Part shown: positions 1-18,068 of the stretch, piece after piece
Layout: the number at the start of each line of letters is the position of its first letter
Numbering within the stretch: position 1 is the first letter of the stretch
Origin: an uncultured Bacilli bacterium
Lineage (GTDB): Bacteria; Bacillota_I; Bacilli_A; RF39; UBA660
Length of the DNA: 18,068 bases
Assembly (NCBI GenBank): GCA_934096535.1
Contig: CAKOMC010000028.1
Location: forward strand, 1 to 18,068
Direction: 5' to 3'
The notes under the pieces: generated by a model
The model's database searches: none
Seen by the model: only the letters and a program-made list of their open reading frames with translations
Told to the model about the DNA's origin: nothing
Program-made: the position numbers and the translations under genes

Positions 1-195
1 GATGTTATCGCTGTTAAAGAACAATCTTTAGACCATCCTGCTATTAAAGCTGCTGTTGAAGCTACTTTAAATAGACCAGCTTATGTTGAATTTGATGCTA
101 ATAAGTTAACTGGAAAATATCTTCGTTTCCCTGATAGAAGTGAATTAAATCCTGATATTAATGAAGCATTAATCGTTGAATACTACAACAGATAA
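1..195 (+). CDS. rpsD: 30S ribosomal protein S4, C-terminal part (5' end outside window)
   Basis: Frame 1 translates to [64 protein letters not shown]. This matches the conserved S4 C-terminus (..KLTG.....P.RSEL...INEALIVE[FY]Y.R). TAA stop at 193..195. Confidence 0.8.
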
Positions 196-226: not shown

Positions 227-455
227 AACTTTTAAAAATCTGAAAAGATCACTTTCGGATTTTTAAGCAATATAGTTTATAATCATTAAAACTAGTCTAA
301 TGATATCTATATTATATATTTAGGTAAATTGCCAAGGACTAACCTTGTTTCCAATCTATAATAGATTATTTTCTTAAAAGAAAATTACTTCTTATATTAA
401 TAGTCGTAACCATTAATCACTAGTGGCATAAATCTAAATCTATCTTAGTAGGAAT

Positions 456-568
456 CTGGGCGGGCACCAAAAGTGTTATCCACATTGTTCCAAGGGTTCA
501 GATAACCAGCGCTATTCTGATTCCACTCACGAGCATTGCCGTTCGTCGCATCAAAGTTAGAAGGGGAC
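456..568 (-). repeat. DGR template repeat TR1 (113 nt)
   Basis: The - strand reads SPSNFDATNGNAREWNQNSAGYLNPWNNVDNTFGARP in the VR frame. It starts GTCCCCTTCTAAC and ends GGTGCCCGCCCAG like the VR, then continues into the TR-type flank ATTCCTACTAAG. Unit signals: TATAAT (- strand) at 632..637; hairpin 239..259 followed by a T-run. Confidence 0.75.
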
Positions 569-881
569 CAAGAGCAAGGCAAGTAAATAGCAACATAAAA
601 AGGTTAATCCTAGAGCCTATGCTCCATCCTCATTATAAGCTATTTTTTTATAATTTAAAATACTTCCCTATCACTAATTTTGATAAGGAAGTAAATAATA
701 CAGTATCTAACTATTAAATCTCGTCTAACAGTATCTATATTTTATCTTCTGACATAGTCATGGTAATATCTTGTTTCCAATCTATAATAGATTATTTTCC
801 TAAAAGAAAATTACTTCTTATATTAATAGCCGTAGCCATTAATCATTAGTGGCATAAATCTAAATCTATCTTAGTAGGAAT

Positions 882-994
882 CTGGGCGGGCACCAAGACC
901 GTTAGCCACATTCCAGTTGTTAGTCAGATAGCCAGCGCTATTCTGATTCCACTCACGAGCATCGCCCCATGTCGCATCAAAGTTAGAAGGGGGG
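882..994 (-). repeat. DGR template repeat TR2 (113 nt)
   Basis: The - strand reads PPSNFDATWGDAREWNQNSAGYLTNNWNVANGLGARP. The 5' end carries a C7 run (G7 on +, 989..995) instead of GTCCCC. It has the same GGTGCCCGCCCAG end and TR-type flank. Unit signals: TGGTAATAT (- strand) at 1023..1031, the least certain promoter of the seven; hairpin 662..692 (12 bp, one G-U on the - strand). Confidence 0.7.
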
Positions 995-1384
995 GAGAAA
1001 AATCTTGGACATGAATGTAAGGATATTACCAAGAATCTTAAAATATTTTACTCACAAATGCAAATTAACTATATTTTTTAGGCTGTATAACGATAATTTT
1101 TTACTACCACAATAAATATTTTAATATTCCAATAACATTATAATATATTTTTTAAAATAAAACACTCCCCTATTAATATTTTTAATAGAAAAGTGCAACA
1201 ATATAGTTTATAATCGCTAAATCATGTTCAGTGATATCTATACTTTATCTTTAGGATACCCTAGGATAAGCCTTGTTTCCAATCTATAAATAGATTATTT
1301 TCTTTAAAGAAAATTACTTCTTATATTAATAGCCGTAACCATTAATCATTAGTGTCATAAATCTAAATCTATCTTAGTAGGAAG

Positions 1385-1494
1385 CTGGGCGGGCACCAAG
1401 AGTGTTGTTAACACCCCAATTGCTCAAGTAGCCAGCGCTATTCTGCATCCACTCATTAGCATTGCCGTTCGTCGCATTAAAGTTAGAAGGGGAC
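1385..1494 (-). repeat. DGR template repeat TR3 (110 nt, one codon shorter)
   Basis: The - strand reads SPSNFNATNGNANEWMQNSAGYLSNWGVNNTLGARP. There are 9 rather than 10 codons between GYL and GARP. The flank after CCCAG is CTTCC rather than ATTCC. Unit signals: extended -10 TGATATAAT (- strand) at 1571..1579; hairpin 1163..1195 (14 bp with three G-U pairs, pairing only on the - strand) plus a T-run. Confidence 0.75.
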
Positions 1495-1809
1495 AAACGG
1501 TAAAACCAGTAAGGCCAATCAATCATTAATAGACTTACCCCGAGATTACAAACTTTTGTAACTCTTCTTGATTATATCATAACTTGTAAAAAAAATAAAA
1601 GAACCACCTAGTAGGTGGCAGCAGCATAGTATCTAACTATTAAATCTCGTCTAACAGTATCTATACCATATATTTAGGTTAATACCTAGGCTACACCTTG
1701 TTTCCAATCTATAAATAGATTATTTCCTTTAAAGAAAATTACTTCTTATATTAATAGCCGTAACCATTAATCACTAGTGTCATAAATCTAAATCTATCTT
1801 AGTAGGAAT

Positions 1810-1922
1810 CTGGGCGGGCACCAATACTGTTGTTAACACCCCACCAGTTGTTGAGATAACCAGCGCTATTCTGATTCCACTCATTAGCAGCGCCGTTCGT
1901 CGCATTAAAGTTAGAAGGGGAC
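1810..1922 (-). repeat. DGR template repeat TR4 (113 nt), cognate template of the current VR
   Basis: The - strand reads SPSNFNATNGAANEWNQNSAGYLNNWWGVNNSIGARP (10 AAY codons). It aligns without gaps to VR 5043..5155 with 11 mismatches, all at adenines of the TR. Unit signals: TATAAT (- strand) at 1994..1999; hairpin CCACCT-AGT-AGGTGG at 1604..1618 followed on the - strand by TTCTTTTATTTTTTTT. Confidence 0.9.
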
Positions 1923-2249
1923 AAAGTAGTACGCTGAAAAAACAATAAGGATTTAGATGTAGCCTAAAGGCTTTATGCCTTCTTCTAAATTATATTATAA
2001 CTTCACGGTTTTTAAAACAAATATTTTCTAATAATCAAAAAGCTCTCCGAAGAGAGCAACCAACATAGTATCTAATTATTAAATCATGTCTAATAATATC
2101 TATGCTATTTATTTAGGAATAAATTCCAAGAAAAAACCTTGTTTCCAATCTATAATAGACCATTTTCTTAAAAGAAAATTACTTCTTATATTAATAGCCG
2201 TAGCCATTAATCACTAGTGTCATAAATCTAAATCTATCTTAGTAGGAAT

Positions 2250-2362
2250 CTGGGCGGGCACCATACCAGTCAGTAACCCAAGTCCATTGATTAAGATAAC
2301 CAGCGCTATTCTGTATCCACTCATTAGCAGCGCCGTTCGTCGCATCAAAGTTAGAAGGGGAC
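2250..2362 (-). repeat. DGR template repeat TR5 (113 nt)
   Basis: The - strand reads SPSNFDATNGAANEWIQNSAGYLNQWTWVTDWYGARP. An in-frame TAG lies immediately upstream. Unit signals: TATAAT (- strand) at 2416..2421; hairpin GCTCTC-CGAA-GAGAGC at 2042..2057 followed on the - strand by TTTTT. Confidence 0.75.
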
Positions 2363-2655
2363 TAATAATCCCGTAGTTCTGTAGGCTTTCTCTAGAGCAC
2401 TTTTGCTCTACTTCTATTATAGTACATTTTTGATTATTTAAAACCACCTTAATCGGTGGTTAAAATTTAGTATAGTTAATAATTATTAAATCATGTCTAA
2501 TAATATCTATACTATTTATTTAGGAATATTTCCAAGAAAAAGCCTTGTTTCCAATCTATAATAGATTATTTTCTTAAAAGAAAATTACTTCTTATATTAA
2601 TAGTCGTAGCCATTAATCATTAGTGTCATAAATCTAAATCTATCGTAGTAGGAAT

Positions 2656-2768
2656 CTGGGCGGGCACCAAAAGTATCATGTATCCAAGCCCAAGGATTGA
2701 GATTGCCAGCGCTATTCTGATTCCACTCATTAGCAACGCCGTTTGTCGCATCAAAGTTAGAAGGGGAC
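2656..2768 (-). repeat. DGR template repeat TR6 (113 nt)
   Basis: The - strand reads SPSNFDATNGVANEWNQNSAGNLNPWAWIHDTFGARP. Unit signals: TATAAT (- strand) at 2822..2827; hairpin AACCACC / GGTGGTT at 2442..2461. Confidence 0.75.
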
Positions 2769-3073
2769 CAAAAGTAGCTCCTTGGTTTTGTAGACTTTCT
2801 CTAGAGCTCTGCTCCACTTCTATTATAATACAGTTTTATAATTTATATTATTTAAATTTTAAAAGACTCTCCGTAGAAAGTCTTAGCAACATAGTTTCCA
2901 ACTAATAAATCATGTCTAATAGTATCTATGCTATATCTTTAGGCAAATTGCCATGGTTAAACCTTGTTTCCAATCTATAATAGATTATTTTCTTAAAGAA
3001 AATTACTTCTTATATTAATAGTCGTAGCCATTAATCATTAGTGTCATAAATCTAAATCTATCTTAGTAGGAAT

Positions 3074-3186
3074 CTGGGCGGGCACCAAGACTGTTAGTAA
3101 CGTCCCACCAAGTATTGAGGTTGCCAGCGCTATTCTGATTCCACTCATTAGCATTGCCCCATGTCGCATCAAAGTTAGAAGGGGAC
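3074..3186 (-). repeat. DGR template repeat TR7 (113 nt)
   Basis: The - strand reads SPSNFDATWGNANEWNQNSAGNLNTWWDVTNSLGARP. Unit signals: TATAAT (- strand) at 3257..3262; hairpin 2864..2883 (8 bp, one G-U on the - strand) followed by a T-rich tract. Confidence 0.75.
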
Positions 3187-3323
3187 TGGATAAGGCGCTG
3201 TAACAGACAATGAAGGTTTTAGGTAAAACCAGAAGACCAAATAGCCTTCGTTTAAAATTATAATATAAATAATTGAAGCTTAAAATACCTCACCTACTCT
3301 TGCTAATTATTTAGTCTAAATAG

Positions 3324-3499: not shown

Positions 3500-4435
3500 A
3501 TGAAAAGCAAGAAAGAAATCCAAAGAACATTAAAAGAAAATAAAGGTGCCGATTTTGTTCTACCGATGACTTGGGATGTAATGTTCGAGCAAATGTTTAT
3601 TTCTGAGGAAGCCATGCCCTTACTTGAGTGTATTATTTCAATATTCGGTAATGTCGATATAAAAGATGTTAAAGGTAAAGTTAGATTATTACCAAACGAA
3701 TTAAAACAAACATCGGCAAAAGATACGAGGAGTAAAAGCGATATAATTGCTGATTATTTTAAAGACGAAAAAAATATTGATAAGTATATTGTGGAAATGA
3801 ATTCATCAAGGAAGATGCCTTGGCATAATGTTTTCTATGCTTATAAAGTAGCTGGTGGCGGTATTTCTATTAATGATGATAAATATGTTAAGGCTTACGA
3901 CACTATCTTAATTGATTTTAACACATTTGCGGATAGCGAAAATGACTTGGTAGAAATGATCACTATGCGTTACAAAACTTGTAAAATCTTTGATGATAGT
4001 ACTAAAATATTCGAAGTAAATATGGCAAAAGCAAAAGATATGAGTTATAATTATGTCGATAAACAAGAAGAACAAGTAGCCATAATTAGTAGAATGTTTA
4101 TGACTACAAGTTCACTTGAGTTGGATAAGGAGTCAGATAAGCTTATGAGTAAAAAAGATACAGAAAAATTAGTTAGTCGTGCCAAAGAATTATCGAGTGA
4201 TGATGGTTATATTAGACTTTTTGATGAAGAAGAAAACTATAAGGAGCTAATTCGTAATACCGAGTTAGCAGAAGCTCATGAAAAAGGTAAATTAGAAGGC
4301 AAGTTAGAAGGCTCTGAAGAAAGAGCATTAGAAATTGCTAAAAAGTGTTTAGAAAAAAACATGAATATTGATACAATTGCAGAACTTACTAGCTTATCAG
4401 TTAAGGAAATTGAAGCTTTAAAGAAAGAAGCTTAA
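3500..4435 (+). CDS. PD-(D/E)XK nuclease-family putative transposase (Rpn / PDDEXK_2-like), left copy
   Basis: 311-aa ORF. Its N-terminal WDVMFEQMF...SKSDIIADY...KYIVEMNSS pattern fits the D...(D/E)xK-type core of this family. The C-terminal EKGKLEGKLEG..ALEIAKKCLEKNMNIDTIAELTSLSVKEIEAL tail is typical of Rpn/YhgA-like proteins. It is a paralogue of 9466..10440. The assignment comes from remembered family patterns and has not been checked by a search. Confidence 0.6.
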   Translation: MKSKKEIQRTLKENKGADFVLPMTWDVMFEQMFISEEAMPLLECIISIFGNVDIKDVKGKVRLLPNELKQTSAKDTRSKSDIIADYFKDEKNIDKYIVEMNSSRKMPWHNVFYAYKVAGGGISINDDKYVKAYDTILIDFNTFADSENDLVEMITMRYKTCKIFDDSTKIFEVNMAKAKDMSYNYVDKQEEQVAIISRMFMTTSSLELDKESDKLMSKKDTEKLVSRAKELSSDDGYIRLFDEEENYKELIRNTELAEAHEKGKLEGKLEGSEERALEIAKKCLEKNMNIDTIAELTSLSVKEIEALKKEA

Positions 4436-4789: not shown

Positions 4790-4901
4790 TTTAAAAGGCT
4801 CTGCCGTTTTGCTTTTTGTAGAAGCAAAACGGCAGTCCATCTCCATCAAGTACCTGCCAAGCATATTGTTTTATTTGTACTTCTCTACCCTGTTTGTTCT
4901 T

Positions 4902-4967: not shown

Positions 4968-6995
4968 TTACTGAACAACATATGGATCAGAACTTGTTCC
5001 AATACCGGAAGTTATCAGAGTATCAGATTTCAGATTGATAACTGGGCGGGCACCAAGACTGCCGTTAACACCCCACCAGTTGCTGAGATAACCAGCGCTA
5101 CTCTGACGCCACTCAAAAGCAGCGCCGTACGTCGCATCAAAGTTAGAAGGGGACATGGTCCAATAGTGTTGAGTTGAATAAACCCATGCCAATTTATTTA
5201 CATGATCATAATCCATACCAGCAAATACTAATTCGTCATATGTAACTAAACCAACTGGATATGTTAAAGCTTTATTACCTATACTTGAATCGGTTGTTGT
5301 GTATAAATCTCTCTCTTTGTTTGGACATGTAAATTGAGGACTTTTAGTTTGATATCTTTTAAAAGGTCCAAAATAACTATACACATTAGTGCTTATACCA
5401 TCTCCACCTGTCAAAGTTCTGTCGCCACAGAAACCAACGGCATTTGATACATAGTTACTATATCCTTTATCAACGATATTAGTTTTGTACCAATTATCTA
5501 CAGTTGTTTTAATTGTTGACGATGTTGTGTTTGTATGGACTTCATCAAATGTTGTACCATCCGGATTTCCATACATATATCCGACATAAGCAGGATCATT
5601 ATAATTACTATTAAATTGGTAAGTTCTATTATTAATTGATTGTTTTGTACTAGTTGCATTTTTTTCTGTACCATTATACATCAATCTTATTGAACCATCA
5701 CCATTAATACGAACTATTTGCCAATAGAAACCAGCAAAATATACATTATTATTTTTTATATTGCCACGATAATAATAAGTTGTACCATAATCATCTGTTC
5801 CTTGATACAAGCCCCTATCAGATTTATCGGTTTCCAACTCAGTTTCTGTTAAAGTAATAGCATTTAATTTATAAGTTACACTATCATATGAAACATTATT
5901 CCATGTTGTTTTGCCTGTTGTCTTTGTAGCACCAGTAACCTGATATACAGTTAGACTACCACCACTAGATGAAGTATATAATTTTTGATTTACTTTGTTA
6001 TATTGAATACTTTCAGCTTGAAAATAATATTTTATATCACCGCTATAATCAAGAGTTGTTGGATCAACATATACTGGATTTGACAATGTATATGTAGCAG
6101 TTGCACTATTAAATGACTTCGTTTTAAATAAACGTAACTTTGTATCATTCAATGCCAAGTTGCTAGCCTGCGTTGCTTTATCAACTGTACCAGTATCTTT
6201 ATTATAAGAATTTATAACACTTTCTGCTGGCTTTGTAGATGATACTGTTGTTGTACCACCCGTTTTTTCTACCCATTTTATTACTGGAGCTGTATTAGTT
6301 ACATCAACAGTTTGTTTAGCAGCAATCTTAGTTTTAGCTATAGCAGGTGTTGTTTGATATTCATTAGCTAAAATTGCTTCTCCTAGCTTATTATAACCAG
6401 CAGATACAGGACTGTAATTACCTGGTTCTGATACAATAACTACTTTTGATTTAAAAATTTTATTCATTACATCATCATTAATCGTCGCATCTTCATCCAT
6501 CCAGAAGGATACAGTATAATCAACTGTATCATCAGCGCCCAAATAACCTTCGGCAATTGTCCTTGCCTCAGTTGATCCCGTCATTGTTGTTGTCGCTGTT
6601 TTATATTTATCTAATGTAGTAATTGCATCACTGTTAATCTTAGTAGCAACCCATTTACTATTTAAAGTTGTACCCTCTAACATTTCTAAATTAACATAAT
6701 AATGAGCAAAAATCGAACAACTATTCCTTAAAGTAAAACTAAATGGTTTTAATTTTAACCCTTCAGCATCAGTTATTGGATAAGCATTAGTTAAGTTAAT
6801 TTCATCTTTTTGATCAGTAAGTTCAATATTAAAACATCCCGATGTTGCCGTATTTGCTTTATCAGCAATATAAGTAAAACGCCAATAAGCATAAGAAACC
6901 CCCACAGTTGCAAGCCCAATAATACAGCATGTTAAAACCAACATTAAAACATGATATTTATTAGGTGTATTTTTTTTAATTCTCTTATCATTCAT
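4968..6995 (-). CDS. DGR target (variable) protein: N-terminal membrane anchor/signal, Thr/Ser-rich extracellular region, C-terminal lectin-like variable domain
   Basis: 675-aa ORF. The N-terminus is KYHVLMLVLTCCIIGLATVGVSYAYW, a hydrophobic anchor followed by an AYW motif reminiscent of TasA/camelysin-type signals. The C-terminus is ...HYWTMSPSNFDATYGAAFEWRQSSAGYLSNWWGVNGSLGARPVINLK and contains the VR. The W..S....A...G...ARPV layout resembles the CLec/DUF1566-type DGR variable domains. Confidence 0.85.
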   Translation of the reverse strand: MNDKRIKKNTPNKYHVLMLVLTCCIIGLATVGVSYAYWRFTYIADKANTATSGCFNIELTDQKDEINLTNAYPITDAEGLKLKPFSFTLRNSCSIFAHYYVNLEMLEGTTLNSKWVATKINSDAITTLDKYKTATTTMTGSTEARTIAEGYLGADDTVDYTVSFWMDEDATINDDVMNKIFKSKVVIVSEPGNYSPVSAGYNKLGEAILANEYQTTPAIAKTKIAAKQTVDVTNTAPVIKWVEKTGGTTTVSSTKPAESVINSYNKDTGTVDKATQASNLALNDTKLRLFKTKSFNSATATYTLSNPVYVDPTTLDYSGDIKYYFQAESIQYNKVNQKLYTSSSGGSLTVYQVTGATKTTGKTTWNNVSYDSVTYKLNAITLTETELETDKSDRGLYQGTDDYGTTYYYRGNIKNNNVYFAGFYWQIVRINGDGSIRLMYNGTEKNATSTKQSINNRTYQFNSNYNDPAYVGYMYGNPDGTTFDEVHTNTTSSTIKTTVDNWYKTNIVDKGYSNYVSNAVGFCGDRTLTGGDGISTNVYSYFGPFKRYQTKSPQFTCPNKERDLYTTTDSSIGNKALTYPVGLVTYDELVFAGMDYDHVNKLAWVYSTQHYWTMSPSNFDATYGAAFEWRQSSAGYLSNWWGVNGSLGARPVINLKSDTLITSGIGTSSDPYVVQ
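5043..5155 (-). repeat. DGR variable repeat (VR) with 3' GC-rich IMH-like element
   Basis: 113 nt, collinear with TR4 1810..1922. The - strand reads SPSNFDATYGAAFEWRQSSAGYLSNWWGVNGSLGARP. It ends in GGTGCCCGCCCAG (5043..5055 on +), then diverges from all TRs (TTATCAATCTG versus ATTCCTACTAAG). Confidence 0.9.
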
Positions 6996-7481: not shown

Positions 7482-8681
7482 TTAATCGTAAATAACTATT
7501 ACTTCATCTTTTTTCTTTTTAACTTTCATATCCATTCCTTTAAACCAAGGGTGTTTTCTAATAAATGAACCGCTGCAACAATTACTTAGATAGCCTTTAT
7601 AACTAGCTAAGACACTTGTATAGTTTTCTGGGGGATTCTTTTCTAATTTATTTAGTTTATGGGTTATTCTTCTTTTCGTTTGACTATTAATAAGTACTAA
7701 TAGTTTTTTATTTTTTAAAACAAAACGATATCCTAAGAAATTAAGACCATCTTTCATCGATATTATTTTTGTTTTTTGATTCAATTTTAATTCTTCAGCA
7801 GCTACTTTTTTTCTGATTTCTTCTAAACAATATTTTAGATATTCTCTATCAGGATGCATTAGAATAAAATCATCCATATAACGAATATAGTATTTAATAT
7901 GTAGTTGTTCTTTAATAAAATGGTCTAAGTCATTTAAGTAATAAATAGCAAATAGTTGACTAGTCATATTCCCTATTGGTAAACCTCTTCCTTCTTGATA
8001 ATAAGGAATAGTACTTAGTTCTTCAAACCTTTTTTTCATATAAGGATTATTAGCTTTTCTTAAGATTTCTTTTTCACAATCAACTAATCTTTTTATTTGA
8101 CTATTAGTATTATTTTGATAAGTTGAAGTTAAAATACTCTTAATTGCCTCTATTACTTCTTCATCAGGTAAAATATTACGCAGTTTTTCAATTAATTTTT
8201 CATGACTAATACTATAAAAGTATTTATGAATATCACATTTTAATATATAGAAATTATCATATTTTCTTTTTAAATGATTAATATAGTCTTTGGTGTAAGA
8301 CAGTCCTAATTTAAGACCTTTATCTCTTCTTGTTGCCACATTCATAGGAATAAGTCGTGGTTCAATTAAGGGTAATAAGATATATTCGCTTATTAAATGG
8401 TTAACAACTTTATCAAAGATATTTTCGCTCATTATAATACGATATTTCGGCTCTTTTACTAAGAAAACATTGTAGTTACTATGATGATAAGATTTAGTTT
8501 TTAAGGTTTCATAAATATTTATGATATTACTCATATAATAGGTTTCAAAGTTAACAATTTTACTACGATGTTTGGTTTTTAATCTAACTTCATAATACAT
8601 ATTTTCAATATATGGAATATTTACAATTGAATCATAAAGATTAGTTTTGTTCTTTAGATTCAGAACTTCTGATGATGCCAT
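7482..8681 (-). CDS. DGR-type reverse transcriptase
   Basis: 399-aa ORF. Motif 4, LPIGNMTSQLFA (IGNMTSQ encoded at 7956..7976), carries the [ILV]GxxxSQ signature of DGR RTs. The catalytic YMDD is encoded at 7869..7880, followed by LNFLGYRF. The gene sits directly downstream of avd, overlaps it by 41 nt, and lies upstream of a VR-bearing gene. Confidence 0.92.
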   Translation of the reverse strand: MASSEVLNLKNKTNLYDSIVNIPYIENMYYEVRLKTKHRSKIVNFETYYMSNIINIYETLKTKSYHHSNYNVFLVKEPKYRIIMSENIFDKVVNHLISEYILLPLIEPRLIPMNVATRRDKGLKLGLSYTKDYINHLKRKYDNFYILKCDIHKYFYSISHEKLIEKLRNILPDEEVIEAIKSILTSTYQNNTNSQIKRLVDCEKEILRKANNPYMKKRFEELSTIPYYQEGRGLPIGNMTSQLFAIYYLNDLDHFIKEQLHIKYYIRYMDDFILMHPDREYLKYCLEEIRKKVAAEELKLNQKTKIISMKDGLNFLGYRFVLKNKKLLVLINSQTKRRITHKLNKLEKNPPENYTSVLASYKGYLSNCCSGSFIRKHPWFKGMDMKVKKKKDEVIVIYD

Positions 8682-9012
8682 AGGCTATCTTTCTCGCTTC
8701 TATTATTATATTTGATAAACATTCTAACTGATGGGAACTTATATATTTTTTATGATACAATTCTCTTGCATAATAATCATACATGGATAATTTTACTATG
8801 TAATCATAGAGATGTTTTTCTTTAACACGATTCGTCCTTTGCAAATTGTAAGCAAAGATATTTTCCATCATATCATATTGACATTCTTCAATATGTCTTT
8901 TGAGATTGGAAGCTTTCTTAGGAACATTTGGTAAAAGTCGATTTAGATAAGCTAAAGCCCTCTCCGTTTGGGATAATAATCTAAATTTATTTTCCATTAT
9001 TTGGGTTGTCAA
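8641..9012 (-). CDS. avd: Accessory variability determinant (Avd-like, helical bundle)
   Basis: ~120-aa basic, helix-rich ORF immediately 5' of the RT and overlapping it, which is the canonical Avd position and size. The start is uncertain. The ORF-track start at 9012 is TTG and overlaps a TATAAT box; ATG at 8997 (MENKFRLL..) is the more likely start. Confidence 0.7.
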   Translation of the reverse strand: MTTQIMENKFRLLSQTERALAYLNRLLPNVPKKASNLKRHIEECQYDMMENIFAYNLQRTNRVKEKHLYDYIVKLSMYDYYARELYHKKYISSHQLECLSNIIIEARKIAYGIIRSSESKEQN

Positions 9013-9100: not shown

Positions 9101-9445
9101 TTAGTCTAAACTTCCATTTTTGGATTTTAAGCTTTCTATTTCTTTAATTGATAAGCCAGTTAATTTAGATATTGTTTTTTGCATCTAACCCAGTATTTAA
9201 AGCATTTTTAGTTAAATTTATGGTTGCAGCCTTTAAACCTTTTTTCAATGTCACGCCTCTCAGCTTCTTCCCTAGCTTCTGCAAGTTCCGTATTACGAAT
9301 TAACTCTTTATAGTTATCTTCTTCACCATTTTCAAACAGTCTAATTATTCATCATCATTTGATAATTCTTTGGCTCTTACCACAATTTTTTTAGTTTATT
9401 CTTTACTCATAATTTCTTTTACATTTTTCTTAAATATACTATATA
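9101..9445 (-). pseudogene. Decayed 3' fragment of an Rpn-like gene (tandem partial duplicate of 9466..10440)
   Basis: 9230..9420 aligns with 9610..9800 (..GCTTCTTCCCTNGCTTCTGCAAGTTCCGTATTACGAATTAACTCTTTATAGTTATCTTCTTCACCATTTTCAAACAGTCTAAT..) but has a 1-nt deletion (AATTATTC versus AATGTATTC) and further substitutions. 9110..9180 still encodes ..ISKLTGLSIKEIESLKSKNGSLD*. Only the C-terminal third is present and the frame is broken. Confidence 0.8.
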
Positions 9446-9465: not shown

Positions 9466-10440
9466 TTAGCATAAATCATTTATTTCTTTAATGGATAAAC
9501 CTGATGACTCAGAAATAATGTCTATGCTAATGCCCGCTTTTTTTAAATTTTTAGCTATATCTATTGCTTTTATTTTAGAACCCTGAATTATTCCTTTTTC
9601 TATTCCTTTTTTAATTCCTTTTTCAAGACCGCGCTCCTCGGCTTCTTCCCTGGCTTCTGCAAGTTCCGTATTACGAATTAACTCTTTATAGTTATCTTCT
9701 TCACCATTTTCAAACAGTCTAATGTATTCATCATCACTTGATAATTCTTTGGCTCTTGCTACAATTTTTTTAGTTTCTTCTTTACTCATAATTTCATTTA
9801 ACTCTCTTTCTAATACTTTAATATCGCATGTAGTTAAAATCCTACATATTCTTGCCATTTTCTCTTCCTGTTCATTAAAATAAGTATACCGCTTATTTAA
9901 AGCTTTATCTATATTAACATTAATAATTTTAATGCTATCTTCAATAATTTTACCAAAATCAGTTTGAAATATTCCAATTTCAACTAATCGTTCAGATTTA
10001 TGATGATAGGAATTAAAATTTACTACGATAGTGTCGAATATTTTTCTATATGCTCCATTTTTTATTTTCAAATCGCTACTTGCAATTTTATAAGCATAAA
10101 AGGCATTTCTCATTACCATAATATGTGATGAATTCATTTCTAAAATACATTTAGTTTCTTTTTTTCCATTAGGATAAGAAAGTAATAAATCACTTTTACT
10201 ATTGGTATCAATTATTGAATGCTGTGGTAAGTCTTTAGGCAGTAATTTAACTTTGCCTTTAAAATTTTGCTTAGTTGTATCTTCTATGGTGGAAACTATA
10301 TACTCTATTAAAGGCATAGTATCACTGGAAATGAACATCTGGTTAAACATAACATCCCAAGCAAGTGGAAAACTAAAGCCGGTAATGTTATGTTCCTTAT
10401 TGTAATGCCACATCTTTATGATTTTCTGTTTTTCTAGCAT
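9466..10440 (-). CDS. PD-(D/E)XK nuclease-family putative transposase (Rpn / PDDEXK_2-like), right copy
   Basis: 324-aa ORF, homologous along its whole length to 3500..4435. Compare WDVMFNQMFIS / WDVMFEQMFIS, SKSDLLLSY / SKSDIIADY, ILEMNSS / IVEMNSS, and the AKELSSDDEYIRLF..NYKELIRNTELAEA block. AGGAGGGAG lies 7 nt upstream of the ATG. Confidence 0.6.
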   Translation of the reverse strand: MLEKQKIIKMWHYNKEHNITGFSFPLAWDVMFNQMFISSDTMPLIEYIVSTIEDTTKQNFKGKVKLLPKDLPQHSIIDTNSKSDLLLSYPNGKKETKCILEMNSSHIMVMRNAFYAYKIASSDLKIKNGAYRKIFDTIVVNFNSYHHKSERLVEIGIFQTDFGKIIEDSIKIINVNIDKALNKRYTYFNEQEEKMARICRILTTCDIKVLERELNEIMSKEETKKIVARAKELSSDDEYIRLFENGEEDNYKELIRNTELAEAREEAEERGLEKGIKKGIEKGIIQGSKIKAIDIAKNLKKAGISIDIISESSGLSIKEINDLC

Positions 10441-10661: not shown

Positions 10662-11888
10662 CTACTTTTTATAATTAATTGTATATTTATTTAATTCTAA
10701 GGTTTTATTTATTTCGCAATATTTAACTGCAACAATAGTATATTTTCCTGAATTATCAGGTAACTTATTATATTCTGTAGTTGTTTCATTAAAAATGAGA
10801 TAATAATCACCATTAATAATGAAAGAATTAAGAGGTAATAACAACTCCATTTGGTTAATTGTTTCAATGTCATTTGTCCAATTCGGATTATTTTCAATTT
10901 CCTTAAGGATTGCCCCATCATCATTACCTTTATAATCAATAATAATATGAGTAACATCACTTTTTTCTTCTTCAACTGCCGAATAACTACTACTTATAAA
11001 CTTACTACTTGGAATCGTAAAACCAATAACATCATTAAATTTATAAATATCTTCATCATTTATGGTTAAAGAAAATGAACCTAAAAATCCAAGAAGAAAA
11101 ATAGCAAGAAAACTAATTACTAAATTTTTATGATTATTACATCTTTTCTCCCAGAGAAAACTTAAAATAAGGGAAATAATAGGAATTGGCAAGAAACACC
11201 AAGCAATCCAGAAATACTTAGTATTAAAAAAGCCAGTACTTGGAAACTTACTAGTTAAATGAATAACTAAATAAAAGGCTGCAAAAATACTTAATAAACT
11301 TAAGCAAAACAAGATATCCATTATCTTTTGCTCTTTTTTATTATATCTATTTATTAAATCAAATTCTTTTTTAAAAGGAAGACCAGAAAACTTACGGTTA
11401 ATAAACTTATTTAAATCACCAGAAATACTTTCTTTTTTTAAAATGATAAACCCTTTATTACTTCTAATTTCTAAGTAAAAATTGTCTTCTGTTTCAATAA
11501 ACTTAACTATATCTTTATAAAATACTTTTCTAGCTTGTAAACTACTACTAGCAATTAAATAATCAATATAAAAATCATACCTATTAGAAATCTTACCTTC
11601 TTCATTGTATTTTCTAAATTTTTTCGTCATTACTTTATCATAATTAATAGTTAAACTTATCAAATTAATAATCTCTAAAATTACTAAAGAAATTAAAAAG
11701 TTAAAAAGACTATGATAATAAGTACCTAGTAGAATACTTACTAAAATAAGAAAAATAGAATTTATTAAAACCTTTAGCCAATATACTTTTGGAAAATACT
11801 TAAGACACAATAAGTAATCACTCGTATTAACCTTCTCTTCTAAGGTATAAATAGCCTTATCTTTAATTTTTAAAATATTATCATTCAT
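10662..11888 (-). CDS. Multi-pass membrane protein with N-terminal YcxB-like region
   Basis: 408-aa ORF. It has two hydrophobic helices after residue ~35, then ..VFYKDIVKFIETEDNFYLEIRSNKGFIILKKE.., which resembles YcxB-family domains. Further TM helices and a C-terminal soluble domain follow. Function unknown. Confidence 0.5.
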   Translation of the reverse strand: MNDNILKIKDKAIYTLEEKVNTSDYLLCLKYFPKVYWLKVLINSIFLILVSILLGTYYHSLFNFLISLVILEIINLISLTINYDKVMTKKFRKYNEEGKISNRYDFYIDYLIASSSLQARKVFYKDIVKFIETEDNFYLEIRSNKGFIILKKESISGDLNKFINRKFSGLPFKKEFDLINRYNKKEQKIMDILFCLSLLSIFAAFYLVIHLTSKFPSTGFFNTKYFWIAWCFLPIPIISLILSFLWEKRCNNHKNLVISFLAIFLLGFLGSFSLTINDEDIYKFNDVIGFTIPSSKFISSSYSAVEEEKSDVTHIIIDYKGNDDGAILKEIENNPNWTNDIETINQMELLLPLNSFIINGDYYLIFNETTTEYNKLPDNSGKYTIVAVKYCEINKTLELNKYTINYKK

Positions 11889-11930
11889 AAACTACACACT
11901 CTTTTCTAAGATATTATTAAGATTATTATA

Positions 11931-11964
11931 GCAAAAAAACTACTTATCAAGGCCAATAAGTAGT
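11931..11964 (-). terminator. Rho-independent terminator after the YihY-family gene
   Basis: 9-bp stem ACTACTTAT (11939..11947) / ATAAGTAGT (11956..11964), followed on the - strand by TTTTTTGC. Confidence 0.6.
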
Positions 11965-11969
11965 TATAA

Positions 11970-12785
11970 TTATTTAATTTTTTTCGTTTCACTTTTCCGA
12001 TAGTTTAGAGCCATTCCTATCACAAAAATATTAGCTAACAAATAAAACCATAACAAGAGAATTACTAAGTTAGCAAGACCACCATAAAAAACAGAATAAT
12101 GAGCATAATGATTGATATAGAATGAATAAATCCAAGTTATAACTAACCACCCAATAGATGTAAAAATTGCCCCATAATTAACATTTTTAGATGGTATTCT
12201 AACATCGGGAGCCATGGCATAAATTATCTTAATAAACAAAAAGATGATAAAAAGGGCAAAAGGACCTTGTAAAAAATCAAATATTTTTTTTAGTTCTTCC
12301 GTAACTTTAGCATTTAAGTTAACATAGGTTACTAGTTCAACTATTTTGTTACCAAATAAAGGGAATATTAAGATAAATAGAAACAAGAAGACAATAAAGA
12401 CGGTCATAACTAGGGCTTTAATTTTACGATAGATATAACCTTTATCCTCAATACCATAAATCATATTAGATGTTATGATGATAGCAGATGCGCCACTAGA
12501 TGCGGTAAAAAAGCCGATAAATAAGGTTACAAAGAAGGAAAACGATAACCCACTTACCGAAACAATAGGGATAATCATTTGACTAATGGTACTCCCAAAA
12601 GCTTTCGTGATAAATTCTTCTATAAAACCAATTGATAGATTTAAACCGGCAGCTCCATACCCAATTAATGTTAAGATAGGAACGATAGAAAGGATAAAAG
12701 AAAAAGCAAGATGTCCAGGCAGAATCAGCATTTCTCTTCTATTAAGCACTTCCCAAAAGTTTTTAATAAACTCTTTTACTTTCAT
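11970..12785 (-). CDS. YihY/BrkB-family (ribonuclease BN-like) integral membrane protein
   Basis: 271-aa ORF. The N-terminal ..REMLILPGHLAFSFILSIVPILTLIGY.. segment and the ~6 TM layout are characteristic of this family. Confidence 0.7.
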   Translation of the reverse strand: MKVKEFIKNFWEVLNRREMLILPGHLAFSFILSIVPILTLIGYGAAGLNLSIGFIEEFITKAFGSTISQMIIPIVSVSGLSFSFFVTLFIGFFTASSGASAIIITSNMIYGIEDKGYIYRKIKALVMTVFIVFLFLFILIFPLFGNKIVELVTYVNLNAKVTEELKKIFDFLQGPFALFIIFLFIKIIYAMAPDVRIPSKNVNYGAIFTSIGWLVITWIYSFYINHYAHYSVFYGGLANLVILLLWFYLLANIFVIGMALNYRKSETKKIK

Positions 12786-12787
12786 TG

Positions 12788-14827
12788 CTACTCCTTAAGA
12801 CTATTTTCTTGCTTTTTGATTTTCATATCTTCAACTGCTTCGTTTAAAGCGTCTTCGACTAATTTTTTATCACTATCAATCATACTATGACCAATAGATG
12901 CCCCAAAATCATATGGCATATTTTTTAATTCTTTGGTTAATTTTTTTATGTAACTAACAACTTGTCTTTCATCATAACCAACTAAGTAGATTAAGAATTC
13001 AGTTCCATCAGTACGAACAATATCACTATTATCTAGTTGAGTTCTAATTAAGATATTGGCCGCAGCTTTAATTTGGGCATCACCCTTTTCATAACCTAGG
13101 GTATCATTAATTTCTTGAATACGATTTAAATCTACAACCACCATAGCTTGCGGATAAATAGTATTCTTATTCCAAGATGAGGCATTTTCCATTAAATAAT
13201 TACGATTCTTTAATGAAGTTAATTGGTCAATATATCTAATTTTTTCTTCTTTTTTAATTTTTTTCGATATTTTAATTTTTCTTGCTCTTTTAAATAAGAT
13301 ATAAATTAAAACTACAAAGACTATTAAAAAATATAAAATATATTTAGCAATAGTTCCTAAAATAGTCCCACTATCTAAGGTTGTTTTATAACTATTTAAG
13401 CCATCAATTCTTATAATACTTGCATCACTTAAAGTTATATAAGCTTTAAATAGTTTCGTAAAGGCATTATTTTCTCTAAGTTTAAAAGTATATGGAGTAT
13501 TAAGACTACCCGTATATCTTGGACTATAATCTTTTAAAGTTGTACTAGCTACATCTAAATAAGTATCATAGTCAACAACCGCAATAATGTCATTATTAGC
13601 TAATGATTTTAACTCACTAGTCTTTTTATAAGTCTTTAAGTCAATCCCATTAATATTTTTCAAATTCTCATAGATAATACTATCTTGCATAACATAAACA
13701 GTCTTATTTTGTAAAGAGTTTAAGGAATTAACAACTAAGTTATTTTTACGACTAGCTATAACATAATATTTAATATCCATATTAGTAGTAATAGTTTCAT
13801 AATTATTAGTTAAGTTATAATAATTAAAGTATAAATCTATTGAATTATTATTAATAGCATTTGTTAATTGTTTATAAGTACGATATTTAATATATTTAAA
13901 ATCAACATCCGCCATTTCACTAAAGTTTTTTAAGTAAATAGAGACAATTCCCCCATAGTTACCCCCTAAAATAATTTCATAAGGGTTATTATTAACAAAA
14001 CCATAGTTATAAATACGAGATTTAATTTCTTTTTGTTCAACTTCGCTTAATTTAATACTCTTAACAATAGTATTTTTTAAATTAGTATTAAAGGCATTTT
14101 TATATTTTTTATTTTGCCATTTACTATAATATTTCTTAATAATACTACTAAAATTATCATCTAACATATAGTAACCATAATATTTTTTAATATCACTAAA
14201 TTCATAAACAATACTATAGTTATTTTCTAAGGTTTCCCCGGCAAATTCGTATTTAGGTACAATAATATATTCTAAGTCTTTTTTGAAGGCTTCTTTTAAA
14301 GTTTCATAAGTATCATATTCTTTAAATTCTATATTACTATCTTCCTTAAAATAGCTCTTGATATAATCAAGGTCTTTTTTTAAGACTCCGACTTTAATAT
14401 TTTTAATAGCTTCTAGATTATTATAATATACATAATCTTTTTTAATTAATGCGTAGTTATCAGCATAAAATTCCACAAATTTATCGTTTTTAGTATTAGT
14501 GGTAATAAATCCACTAGTAGCACTTTCATCTTTACTCGTATAAGTTACAGGATTGATTTTAAGATTATACTCTTTACCTAAATCATTTAAAAAGTCATAA
14601 AAGATACCAGTCCCACCATTACCAAAGATATCTAAATCATTAATAACATTAACATTTAAAACGGTCGATAGGTTATTATTTATCCATTTATTTTCTTCAA
14701 CTGTCAGTTTATTTTCATCATTTAAGATATGGACAACCACTAAAGATACGATTGTTATAATGATAATACCTAAAAAGGACGCAAAAATCAGTCTTACTTT
14801 TTTGGCCATACTATTCACCATCATCAC
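12788..14827 (-). CDS. Membrane sensor with large extracytoplasmic region and C-terminal degenerate GGDEF domain
   Basis: 679-aa ORF with an N-terminal TM, ~480 aa of extracytoplasmic sequence, and a second TM (ILGTIAKYILYFLIVFVVLIYIL). These are followed by DQLTSLKNRNYL...VVVDLNRIQEINDTLGYEKGDAQI...RTDGTEFLIYL, a GGDEF fold whose signature reads DGTEF. The likely true start is ATG 14809 (MAKKV..), preceded by GGTGA. Confidence 0.75.
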   Translation of the reverse strand: MMMVNSMAKKVRLIFASFLGIIIITIVSLVVVHILNDENKLTVEENKWINNNLSTVLNVNVINDLDIFGNGGTGIFYDFLNDLGKEYNLKINPVTYTSKDESATSGFITTNTKNDKFVEFYADNYALIKKDYVYYNNLEAIKNIKVGVLKKDLDYIKSYFKEDSNIEFKEYDTYETLKEAFKKDLEYIIVPKYEFAGETLENNYSIVYEFSDIKKYYGYYMLDDNFSSIIKKYYSKWQNKKYKNAFNTNLKNTIVKSIKLSEVEQKEIKSRIYNYGFVNNNPYEIILGGNYGGIVSIYLKNFSEMADVDFKYIKYRTYKQLTNAINNNSIDLYFNYYNLTNNYETITTNMDIKYYVIASRKNNLVVNSLNSLQNKTVYVMQDSIIYENLKNINGIDLKTYKKTSELKSLANNDIIAVVDYDTYLDVASTTLKDYSPRYTGSLNTPYTFKLRENNAFTKLFKAYITLSDASIIRIDGLNSYKTTLDSGTILGTIAKYILYFLIVFVVLIYILFKRARKIKISKKIKKEEKIRYIDQLTSLKNRNYLMENASSWNKNTIYPQAMVVVDLNRIQEINDTLGYEKGDAQIKAAANILIRTQLDNSDIVRTDGTEFLIYLVGYDERQVVSYIKKLTKELKNMPYDFGASIGHSMIDSDKKLVEDALNEAVEDMKIKKQENSLKE

Positions 14828-15296
14828 TTACCGGATTGTTATTGTTCCAGATTAAGTTTGTACCATTAACATTTTTAGAACCCATGATAGTAAAGCCATC
14901 ACTGGATTCATCCTTAGCACTTACTAAGGTAAAATGAATGTCATAAAAGCCTTTTTCCTCATTACTAAATTGCTCTAAAGTTTTAGCCGCTACCGCCTTT
15001 GATGTAGTAAGATCAGCCCCAGCTTTAAAAACAATACGAATATAAATGATTTTACCACTTACTTCAACTTTAGCATCATCGACATTTTTACCTTCTTTAA
15101 TGCTATTTACAAGACTTTCTTTTTTAGTATCATTAATCTCTACGGCCTCAATACCATCTAAACGATCACCATATTTAGACCCTCCATTGCCAAAGTAAAA
15201 GTACTTAAGTAATAAGGCAACGCTAATACCAATACAAGCGATAATTATTAAAACCATGAAACAAATTGCTTTATTATTACGAATAAATTTTTTCAA
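14811..15296 (-). CDS. Small membrane-anchored hypothetical protein
   Basis: 161-aa ORF with a TTG start at 15296 preceded by AAGAGGTG. It has an N-terminal TM (AICFMVLIIIACIGISVALLL) and no recognisable motif. Confidence 0.55.
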   Translation of the reverse strand: MKKFIRNNKAICFMVLIIIACIGISVALLLKYFYFGNGGSKYGDRLDGIEAVEINDTKKESLVNSIKEGKNVDDAKVEVSGKIIYIRIVFKAGADLTTSKAVAAKTLEQFSNEEKGFYDIHFTLVSAKDESSDGFTIMGSKNVNGTNLIWNNNNPVSDDGE

Positions 15297-15336
15297 AATT
15301 ACACCTCTTTCTGTAAATTGATTATACTATATATTT

Positions 15337-17364
<2,028 letters not shown>

Positions 17365-17388
17365 TTATTTTATCACTTTTTAGGAACT

Positions 17389-17417
17389 TAAAAAAGTACA
17401 AAGGACTAACTTTGTAC
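17389..17417 (-). terminator. Rho-independent terminator upstream of ligA
   Basis: 8-bp stem GTACAAAG (17396..17403) / CTTTGTAC (17410..17417), followed on the - strand by TTTTTT. Confidence 0.6.
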
Positions 17418-17471
17418 CCAATTTCAATATGATTTTTATACCCCAGAATATTTTATTAAACACTTTATTAC

Positions 17472-18068
17472 TTAATGAAGTTCCCATAAAGGATCATGAT
17501 AAGTCATTGCCAAATTGCGTTTATGTTCAGCCTGAATAGTTCTATCTAAATTTTGCATACCAACTCTATATTGTCTTTGTAATAATTGAAATTTAACATA
17601 CCTAATAACCGGTTTTGGCGAATCACTTACAAGTTCAAGACAGTCTGCAATTTTTTCTTCTGACCCCGAAACAATATCTTCAAATAACTCATCGGCCTCG
17701 CATCGTTTTAAATCGGACAATTTTTGAAGAATTAACTTTTCAATGCTATTAGTTAAATATTTATCAATTAGTCTATAATCTGCATCATTCCATCTTTTCT
17801 TAGGATATTTTTTTAAAACTTTTAAAAGTTCTAATTCTTCCTGATAGCGATCTAAGATTTCTCGTTCTTTTTTATTTACCTTAGAAGCCTTCTTTGCTCC
17901 TATTCTTTTAATATTTTCTTTTTCATATTCACTTATATATGATAGCCAGAAACACCATTCCTTAATCAAATTATCAATGTTCATAAACAACATTAAATCA
18001 GGACTTTCAATCATTATGACATCGCTATTTTTTCTCATTTCTTTAATAATCATATCATTTATACTCAT
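17472..18068 (-). CDS. Hypothetical protein (may extend beyond the window edge)
   Basis: An open frame of 198 codons reaches the window end. I recognise no motif in it. Confidence 0.4.
   Translation of the reverse strand: MSINDMIIKEMRKNSDVIMIESPDLMLFMNIDNLIKEWCFWLSYISEYEKENIKRIGAKKASKVNKKEREILDRYQEELELLKVLKKYPKKRWNDADYRLIDKYLTNSIEKLILQKLSDLKRCEADELFEDIVSGSEEKIADCLELVSDSPKPVIRYVKFQLLQRQYRVGMQNLDRTIQAEHKRNLAMTYHDPLWELH

Follow-up and report, generated by a model that had tools for sequence, protein, structure and literature searches.

Which template does a retroelement copy when it carries seven of them and has a single site to write into? The question is posed by a diversity-generating retroelement (DGR) on contig CAKOMC010000028.1 of an uncultured Bacilli bacterium, a stretch of 18,068 nt that was analysed over its whole length and is called the window below. 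The reverse transcriptase (RT) gene, two accessory genes (avd and the MutS-domain-I-like gene, MSL) and the target gene of this DGR stand together, and the target ends in a variable region (VR), the single VR that a repeat search recovered in the window, as the initial annotation of this DNA had claimed. Seven template repeats (TRs) lie 3.6-6.9 kb from the RT gene and 1.9-4.7 kb downstream of the VR, and no repeat adjoins the RT: avd and the RT gene overlap, and the RT-MSL and MSL-target gaps measure 10 nt and 98 nt. On the sequence features and comparisons set out here, we hold it to be very probable that seven self-contained TR RNA genes, and not one RT-adjacent TR, supply the templates for this VR, and that the element combines scaffold switching with adenine hypermutation.

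Seven template units and one variable region

The repeat search, which returned families of 159-242 nt, placed seven direct-repeat units at 232..3290 on the minus strand, which also carries the DGR genes, at a spacing of 406-503 nt; an eighth copy of their 113/114-nt core, at 5042..5155, falls inside the target open reading frame (ORF; 4968..6995, minus strand) and is the VR. We number the units by array position counted from the VR, so that units 1 to 7 correspond to TR7, TR6, TR5, TR4, TR3, TR2 and TR1 of the initial annotation (Table 1). The TRs are 113 nt long (110 nt in TR3) and share both ends: GTCCCCTTCTAAC at the 5' end (CCCCCCTTCTAAC in TR2), where GTCCCCTTCTAACTTT is common to all, and GGTGCCCGCCCAG at the 3' end, followed by the flank ATTCCTACTAAGATAGATTTAG (CTTCC in TR3, ACTACG in TR6). 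Non-adenine markers set individual units apart, namely TGG at codon 9, CAATGGACTTGG in unit 3 and the loss of one codon in unit 5. At the position of the initiation of mutagenic homing (IMH) element, the TR sequence of the seven units and of every related locus is ATTCCTACTA, against TTATCAATCTG on the VR side, and the VR flank TTATCAATCTGAAATC is also present in four related loci (L001, L006, L009 and L015). The IMH/IMH* asymmetry of the usual DGR type is visible here between the putative IMH of the VR and the TRs, and by sequence-level criteria (RT, a TR/VR pair differing at adenines only, IMH asymmetry and Avd) the locus is a DGR.

Read 5' to 3', a unit consists of a -10 box, a leader of 53-76 nt with a hairpin, the TR, a nearly invariant segment of ~120 nt, a variable hairpin, a conserved segment of ~60 nt and a final hairpin with a T-run. 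TATAAT stands 53-76 nt upstream of six of the seven TRs, and its position is kept while the neighbouring sequence diverges, both within the array and between species; in a related array (L018), TGATATAAT directly follows each terminator hairpin in nine units. The leader stems vary from unit to unit (GGAGC/GCTCT, AAGGC/GCCTT, AAGAC/GTCTT). Terminator-like sites are enriched (10, against 3.2 +/- 1.8 in shuffled sequence), four of the seven final hairpins meeting the criteria of the terminator scan and the remaining three being visible as hairpin plus T-run in the alignment A3 described below. The TR frames have no start codon and close in stops soon after the core (..GARPDSY*), that of TR6 running 19 codons longer. 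Each unit appears, from this arrangement, to make its own RNA of ~390 nt. The initial annotation held up throughout: its seven cores matched exactly when re-extracted from the minus strand, its -10 positions were exact (TATAAT in six units, TGGTAATAT in TR2), its shared TR ends and its TR-type and VR-type flanks were present as it described them, and its stem-loops with T-runs and its stop-closed frames without a start were recovered.

Two other readings of the repeats were discarded. That the units are coding genes is ruled out by the absence of start codons, by the stop-closed frames and by RNA-type covariation downstream of the TRs; that they are an assembly artefact, with population variants laid out in tandem, is ruled out by the recurrence of unit-specific leaders and terminators, unit order and flanks in independent assemblies from several studies.

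The composition of the TRs is in keeping with use as templates. A window TR holds 24-28 adenines, with 22-27 at codon positions 1-2 and 1-3 at position 3, as well as 5-10 AAY codons and not one codon that adenine substitution could convert to a stop, and between 10^13 and 10^16 peptides are specifiable per TR. We read this adenine placement, together with the avoidance of stops, as a signature of selection for template function in every unit.

Template usage among strains

Compared with unit 4 (TR4), the window VR shows 11 differences, all 11 at TR adenines, while the other five 113-nt TRs leave 10-16 non-adenine differences (TR3, one codon shorter, was unscored); the same adenine-only pattern was repeated in 10 further loci. 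What changes from strain to strain is the unit concerned, among strains that have this locus and array and whose target proteins are 98-100% identical beyond the VR. In L006/L007, which have the same synteny and the same seven units in the same order, and whose target protein differs from that of the window at 5 of 614 non-VR residues, the VR is unit 1 (TR7) with 14 adenine and no non-adenine changes, and it includes the strain's private unit-1 variant CCATGGTGGGAT. The VR of L009 is unit 6 (TR2) with 12 adenine changes and two non-adenine mismatches right at the 5' edge. The window, L006 and L009 have kept the seven units and their order, and differ in the cognate unit. Further matches (adenine/non-adenine changes) link the VR to unit 2 in L013 (12/0), to unit 6 in L028 (16/1) and to unit 1 in L035 (17/0) and L029 (14/0); L014 and L015, which represent one species whose chromosomal context differs from that of the window, match unit 2 (12/0) and unit 5 (10/0), respectively. 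The runner-up unit had 7-16 non-adenine mismatches in every compared case. Judged by these matches, units 1, 4 and 6 have certainly each served this VR in different strains of one species.

At the protein level, we collected 3077 homologues of the target, the best 120 of which are full-length orthologues (77-97% identity), and sorted their VR peptides by adenine-immutable codons. All seven window scaffolds were found among the orthologue VRs, drawn from the 90%-identity cluster of the window protein and its neighbouring clusters, several of them without any incompatible codon. The members of the 90%-identity cluster of the window protein were compared at the 614 non-VR residues, with 0-12 differences. 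VRs of the TR4 type occur in P0121 (the window protein), P0133, P0124 and P0126/P0130, of the TR7 type in P0122, of the TR6 type in P0125/P0131, of the TR2 type in P0129 and P0132, of the TR5 type in P0001/P0127 and of the TR1 type in P0123. The single Asn-to-Tyr change that separates P0133 from the window protein lies at an AAC codon and is ordinary DGR variation. P0123, which has none of 614 non-VR differences from the window protein, yet carries a TR1-type VR, sits in the same ligA..Avd-RT-MSL-target locus; it and P0122, P0125 and P0129 all lie behind RT and MSL (and Avd where the contig reaches), with an Rpn-like gene downstream. Longer contigs match the window flanks, on the ligA side in L003, L004 and L010 and with the TR array followed by rpsD in L006 and L009. 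Judged by this shared neighbourhood, the proteins with differing VRs are alleles of one locus and not paralogues. Measured against point mutation, the switch is recent, since different scaffolds are found in proteins that are identical or 5/614 apart at their non-VR residues.

Mosaic VRs (P0123, P0001/P0127, P0132 and P0002) fit no single unit, and one switch suffices for each, its 5' and 3' segments deriving from different units; the contigs that bear them do not include the strains' own arrays. In the Bordetella phage BPP-1, retrohoming proceeds from the IMH end, and the mosaics are at most suggestive of partial conversion starting at the IMH.

The initial annotation had proposed that the array is a library of alternative templates for one VR, and the adenine-only derivatives of other units in other strains support this. 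The VR alleles with non-adenine markers of other TRs that it had suggested looking for do exist (unit 1 in L006/L007, unit 6 in L009). Two of the ways in which it might have been wrong fail: TR4 alone does not account for all VR alleles, and service of the other six TRs to other genes only is contradicted for at least units 1, 4 and 6 at the DNA level and for all seven types at the protein level.

A structured module downstream of the templates

For the segment that follows the TR, 48 distinct units from eight loci were aligned over 250 nt from the GC element (alignment A3), and RNAalifold predicted a common structure of eight helices and 46 pairs, in a module of ~190 nt. Paired cells amount to 98.5%, a percentage inflated by the derivation of the structure from the same sequences, and fall to 34-47% once the partners are shifted by 1-3 columns. 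Compensatory changes, whose counts are less affected, are present in 14 pairs, compared with 1-6 after shifting. Covariation scores 0.225 (0.035-0.07 after shifting), and none of 500 shuffles reached the observed value. An invariant TTCC just 3' of the TR forms, in the predicted structure, a helix with the GGAA that lies within the likewise invariant TAGATTGGAAACAAG. Every array, those of L018 (12), L019 (5) and L020 (1) included, has exactly one copy of the module core AGATTGGAAAC for each TR unit. In L020, two TRs precede one module, and solely the module-adjacent TR gives an adenine-only match to the VR.

BPP-1 likewise has a structured RNA 3' of its TR, reportedly the spacer described by Handa and colleagues in 2018. 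By analogy, we take the module to be the counterpart of that spacer, a putative region for Avd/RT recognition and cDNA priming. Two variants of the segment right after the TR (GATAGATTTAGATTTATGACACTA.. and GATAGAAAATAGTTCTATGAACTG.., A3 columns 30-100) coexist within single arrays in L001, L014 and L015; the cognate unit has the second variant in L015 and the first in L014.

Proposed mechanism and alternatives

We propose that the RNA of any unit would be bound through the common module and reverse-transcribed with randomisation of its adenines. The cDNA would then home to the single VR through the common GC element and the VR-specific IMH flank, the TRs being spared by their different flank; the shared GTCCCCTTCTAACTTT, or at times a point deeper in the repeat, would be where the 5' junction is resolved. 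One event could in this manner swap the non-adenine scaffold, either whole or in its IMH-proximal 3' part (which would yield mosaics), and at the same time randomise the adenine positions. The anatomy, the adenine-only descent of one VR from different units in near-identical strains, the conservation and the RNA covariation are what the data show; that the units are transcribed separately, that the switch needs the RT, what the module does, how the mosaics arose and what governs the choice of unit are parts of the scheme that we infer.

The alternative that survives best, though we judge it improbable, is that the extra TRs mainly serve cognate VRs in other genes and that the array is a shared depot. 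Remote targets, and more than one TR-VR pair in an element, have been described for DGRs (Wu et al. 2018, PMC5758913; Yan 2019), and the C-terminal domain of the target belongs to a very large family (6130 representative clusters). No second VR, however, lies within 10 kb of any locus examined; the DGR-distant target homologue P0119 does not vary across 20 contigs; and this VR is an adenine-only derivative of unit 4, 1 or 6 depending on the strain, so that these units act here. Service to other genes could hold beside scaffold switching at this VR, not in place of it.

A shade less credible still is replacement at the level of DNA, in which TR DNA would enter the VR by gene conversion, perhaps with the aid of Rpn, and the RT would afterwards mutagenise from the matching TR only. 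Recombination could find a footing in the ends of 16-25 nt and the conserved central block that units and VR have in common, Rpn-family nuclease homologues flank and interrupt the arrays, and mosaic VRs are also what gene conversion of the pilS/vls type would produce. In each strain, however, the VR carries 10-17 substitutions exactly at the adenines of its cognate unit, so that cDNA of units 1, 4 and 6 has certainly been used. Conversion could have been a first step but is not needed, since all units share the homing ends and the module and retrohoming alone explains the switch. From BPP-1 retrohoming, the IMH-proximal 3' segment of the mosaics would be the newer one, a point on which the data themselves are silent.

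Very unlikely, and the weakest of the three, is the idea of one active template per strain with the other units as relics or decoys and the strain differences as old divergence: it would accommodate the units with a defective GC element or a degenerate sequence, the lack of a consensus -10 box in unit 6 and the comparison of strains instead of members of one clone, but it sits badly with different scaffolds in proteins that are nearly or fully identical outside the VR, with the adenines at codon positions 1-2 and the avoidance of stop-capable codons in all seven TRs, and with an array that the window, L006 and L009 retain in full and in one order despite different cognate units.

Switching among independently expressed templates, the explanation that we favour, has nevertheless a number of observations to contend with, and these weigh against it. 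The case for transcription of the units is built from sequence features. A scan for sigma-70-type promoters gave 27 sites against 25.2 expected in shuffled sequence, that is, no enrichment in this AT-rich DNA, and for this reason the promoter case rests on the position of TATAAT being kept within the array and between species; unit 6, with TGGTAATAT, has no consensus -10 box. L013 contains, besides four intact units, a fifth of the TR7 type (6771..6900) whose GC element and junction are mutated (GGTGCCCGCTTAAGACTTCTC) and which is probably inactivated, and several otherwise intact units, the cognate unit of L013 among them, have GGTGCCCGCCAG, with one C fewer in the GC element. To judge from such deletions and from the degenerate L013 unit, some units may be inactive in some strains. 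One or two codons underlie each mosaic call, and P0134 fits no known unit (6 incompatible codons). VRs were in view over 18 kb here and over at most 10 kb on either side in relatives. Finally, the data compared are metagenome assemblies from different hosts and not one clonal lineage, which places the rate and mechanism of switching outside their view.

Distribution of the arrays

Further arrays were located through RT homologues and a junction-specific sequence pattern. L018 (RT 76% identical) has 12 TR units of ~385 nt and one VR, best matched by unit 11. In L019 (RT 62%), the target gene and avd are separated by five units of ~335 nt; the VR there is the first unit with 8 adenine and no non-adenine changes, and the other units show 21-26 non-adenine differences. 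L020 (RT 55%) has two TRs. Arrays of 2-12 TR units, each with the same module, accompany RTs down to 55% identity (L020 having two TRs per module), and the ratio in related loci is 4-12 TRs to one VR. Array make-up is dynamic, and L002 has an eighth unit and an Rpn-like gene inside its array. The junction pattern found 19 further stretches, all from human-gut metagenomes, with 5-6 units on several contigs; the two closest genome records are metagenome-assembled genomes from Hadza gut metagenomes. The pattern used to scan the genome collection was the 5' TR/VR end, which mutated VRs escape, so that VRs per genome are uncountable from it. Three viral-contig matches to the TR-module signature, all repeat-free and one of them (L041) inside an ORF, were judged to be chance matches.

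It seems likely to us that these loci form a lineage of human-gut Bacilli DGRs in which an expandable array of 2-12 units has taken the place of the single template. Independently expressed templates would compete for one VR, whole or 3'-anchored swaps would exchange or mosaic its non-adenine scaffold, and adenine mutagenesis would randomise the remainder. Such a two-tier system would be an RNA-templated analogue of cassette variation, possibly tunable via the individual promoters.

The five-TR DGR of L019 stands directly beside a type II-A locus of clustered regularly interspaced short palindromic repeats (CRISPR) and associated Cas genes (Cas9, Cas1, Cas2, Csn2; 11712..17605).

Genes of the locus and the target protein

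The window is chromosomal DNA of a low-GC bacterium. Both Avd profile scores in Table 1 fall under the curated cut-offs, yet the alignment spans the full length. The motif [I/L/V]GxxxSQ, together with YxDD, is a hallmark of DGR-type RTs. Avd, RT and MSL together make up the 'Architecture D' of Wu et al. 2018 (PMC5758913).

Table 1. Positions and strands of the features in the window
Feature	Positions	Strand	Details
Unit 1 (TR7)	2864..3262	-	-10 TATAAT 3262..3257; leader hairpin; TR 3186..3074; predicted RNA module about 3073..2890; putative terminator 2883..2864
Unit 2 (TR6)	2442..2827	-	-10 2827..2822; TR 2768..2656; module; putative terminator 2461..2442
Unit 3 (TR5)	2042..2421	-	-10 2421..2416; TR 2362..2250; module; putative terminator 2057..2042
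Unit 4 (TR4), cognate template of the window VR	1604..1999	-	-10 1999..1994; TR 1922..1810; module; putative terminator 1618..1604
Unit 5 (TR3), 110 nt, one codon shorter	1163..1579	-	TGATATAAT 1579..1571; TR 1494..1385; module; putative terminator 1195..1163
Unit 6 (TR2), cognate template of the L009 VR	662..1031	-	TGGTAATAT 1031..1023, no TATAAT; TR 994..882; module; putative terminator 692..662
Unit 7 (TR1)	232..637	-	-10 637..632; TR 568..456; module; putative terminator 259..239
VR	5042..5154	-	last 37 variable-scaffold codons of the target (SPSNFDATYGAAFEWRQSSAGYLSNWWGVNGSLGARP); residues 615-651 of 675
IMH-like element	5026..5054	-	GC-rich GGTGCCCGCCCAG 5054..5042, common to all TRs; then VR-specific flank TTATCAATCTGAAATC 5041..5026
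Target gene, 675 aa	4968..6995	-	N-terminal hydrophobic helix; C-terminal 286-aa DUF6273-like domain ending in the VR
VR-bearing domain	4971..5828	-	target residues 390-675
MSL (MutS-domain-I-like accessory), 125 aa	7094..7471	-	PF01624, E 5e-4, 20.7 bits against a cut-off of 20.6
DGR reverse transcriptase, 399 aa	7482..8681	-	RVT_1 1.3e-18; LPIGNMTSQ and YMDD in translation
Avd accessory gene	8641..9012	-	bAvd 1.6e-8; NF033474 DivGenRetAVD 2e-8
Rpn-family nuclease/putative transposase-like gene	3500..4435	+	between target and TR array; TIGR01784 3.4e-11, under cut-off; association only
Second Rpn-family paralogue	9466..10440	-	other side of the DGR core; TIGR01784 4.6e-9, under cut-off
rpsD, 3' end	1..195	+	
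ligA	15337..17358	-	

The hydrophobic helix of the target spans residues about 13-36. The full-length protein gave no sequence match in Pfam, NCBIfam or PDB, and one homologue matches DUF6273 at E 0.005. An AlphaFold model of the full-length target from a shallow alignment (predicted local distance difference test, pLDDT, 43.6) was discarded for a model of the C-terminal domain from a diverse alignment (pLDDT 96.8). This VR-bearing domain represents an unnamed family that comprises 6130 clusters at 50% identity; single proteins of 2000-4900 aa contain up to 11 copies of it in tandem. The sole significant fold match of the domain in PDB is the Thomasclavelia ramosa IgA peptidase (9qa6), and PDB C-type lectins gave weak matches (E about 1). 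Compared with viral models, the domain matched DUF6273 proteins best (E 6e-5 to 1e-3, probability 1.0, template-modelling score 0.36-0.45), and DUF6273 has been described as a lectin-like DGR target domain in gut phages (bioRxiv 10.1101/2024.10.15.618418). The likeliest role of the target is that of a surface-anchored ligand-binding protein. P0119 (L016 10001..12025; L017), a full-length homologue, ends in GVRP and not GARP and has no RT, Avd or TR within 10 kb; from these features, it is a non-diversifying relative of the DGR target.

Rpn-like homologues were also seen between or inside arrays in L002 (3750..4676), L014 (12286..17657), L015 and L018 (15680..16977), and the chromosomal context of the DGR varies by species (rpsD/ligA; pilus genes/atpE; capsule genes; Cas9). 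The Rpn-like genes might mobilise the DGR cassette or rearrange arrays. Just downstream of the second paralogue in the window lies a ~205-nt duplicate of its 3' part (9232..9436 against 9610..9815, 87-90% identical), a site that holds a separate 116-aa ORF in other strains. Downstream of the target, at about 4790..4900 on the minus strand, a perfect 14-bp hairpin (CTGCCGTTTTGC..GCAAAACGGCAG) was noted, with a counterpart at about 215..330 in L001; the stretch is conserved between species and can also be translated as a short ORF (..KQYAWQVLDGDGLPFCFYKKQNGRAF*), whose amino-acid changes in L001 are conservative. A mini-gene, the remnant of a gene and an RNA element are all possible readings of it. 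A whole-window Rfam scan (E <= 1) gave no match in the array, and no tRNAs were found in the window.

Comparison with known systems

With the canonical DGR of BPP-1 (avd-TR-brt, with the VR in mtd), the locus shares Avd and a DGR-type RT, TR/VR differences solely at TR adenines, a VR at the 3' end of the target gene and a common GC-rich element with an IMH flank that differs between VR and TR. It departs from BPP-1 in having no RT-adjacent TR but seven TRs, each with a promoter-like box, leader hairpin, module and terminator, in being chromosomal and not phage-borne, and in its extra MSL gene. The MSL DGRs (Architecture D, PMC5758913; Legionella, Bacteroides) have the same set of Avd, RT and a small MutS-domain-I-like protein, but they are described with a single TR, whereas 2-12 TR units per RT are found here.

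More than one TR per RT is not in itself without precedent. Yan 2019 reported DGRs with several TRs, each with its own VRs, a 2024 survey noted VRs hit by at least two TRs, and a survey pipeline (PMC11661182) flagged genome sequences with at least two TRs and dropped nine such cases from later analysis. Surveys have counted loci with two or more TRs without interpreting them. Either each TR there has VRs of its own, or the cases were left out of further analysis; the window, in contrast, does not offer one VR per TR, its seven TRs facing one VR. DGRs of the Treponema denticola type also have unequal numbers of TRs and VRs for one RT, but there one template serves many targets, while here many templates would serve one target.

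In Neisseria pilE/pilS and Borrelia vlsE/vls, promoterless cassettes bring about whole or mosaic replacement at one expression site by RecA-type gene conversion. The likeness to our locus lies in the tandem cassette library beside one expressed site and in the whole or segmental replacement of the variable segment. The differences are that the cassettes here are not bare but have a conserved -10 box, module and terminator and look like expressed RNA genes, that the VR changes are adenine-specific, and that transfer would proceed via error-prone reverse transcription, each switch being adenine-mutagenised.

In 7.7 million PMC papers and in bioRxiv, with subscription-only sources outside this scope, we found no description of arrays of complete TR units, of many TRs per VR or of a strain-wise change of the cognate TR. 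The architecture and the added mode of diversification are new among DGRs, an earlier description in subscription-only literature being possible. Since pipelines flag or discard loci with at least two TRs (PMC11661182), this class of arrays is probably under-reported.

Significance

Many public gut metagenomes contain the locus, which makes switching rates directly measurable. The units provide a natural definition of a minimal portable template unit, which would be useful for engineered DGR mutagenesis with interchangeable templates, and, given the compact conserved module, TR RNAs would be suppliable in trans from stand-alone genes kilobases away. DGR diversification has hitherto been seen as confined to the adenines of one fixed template, the scaffold changing by ordinary mutation alone. 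A template array would lift that limit: seven or more scaffolds, a length variant among them, and their mosaics would together make up the reachable space.

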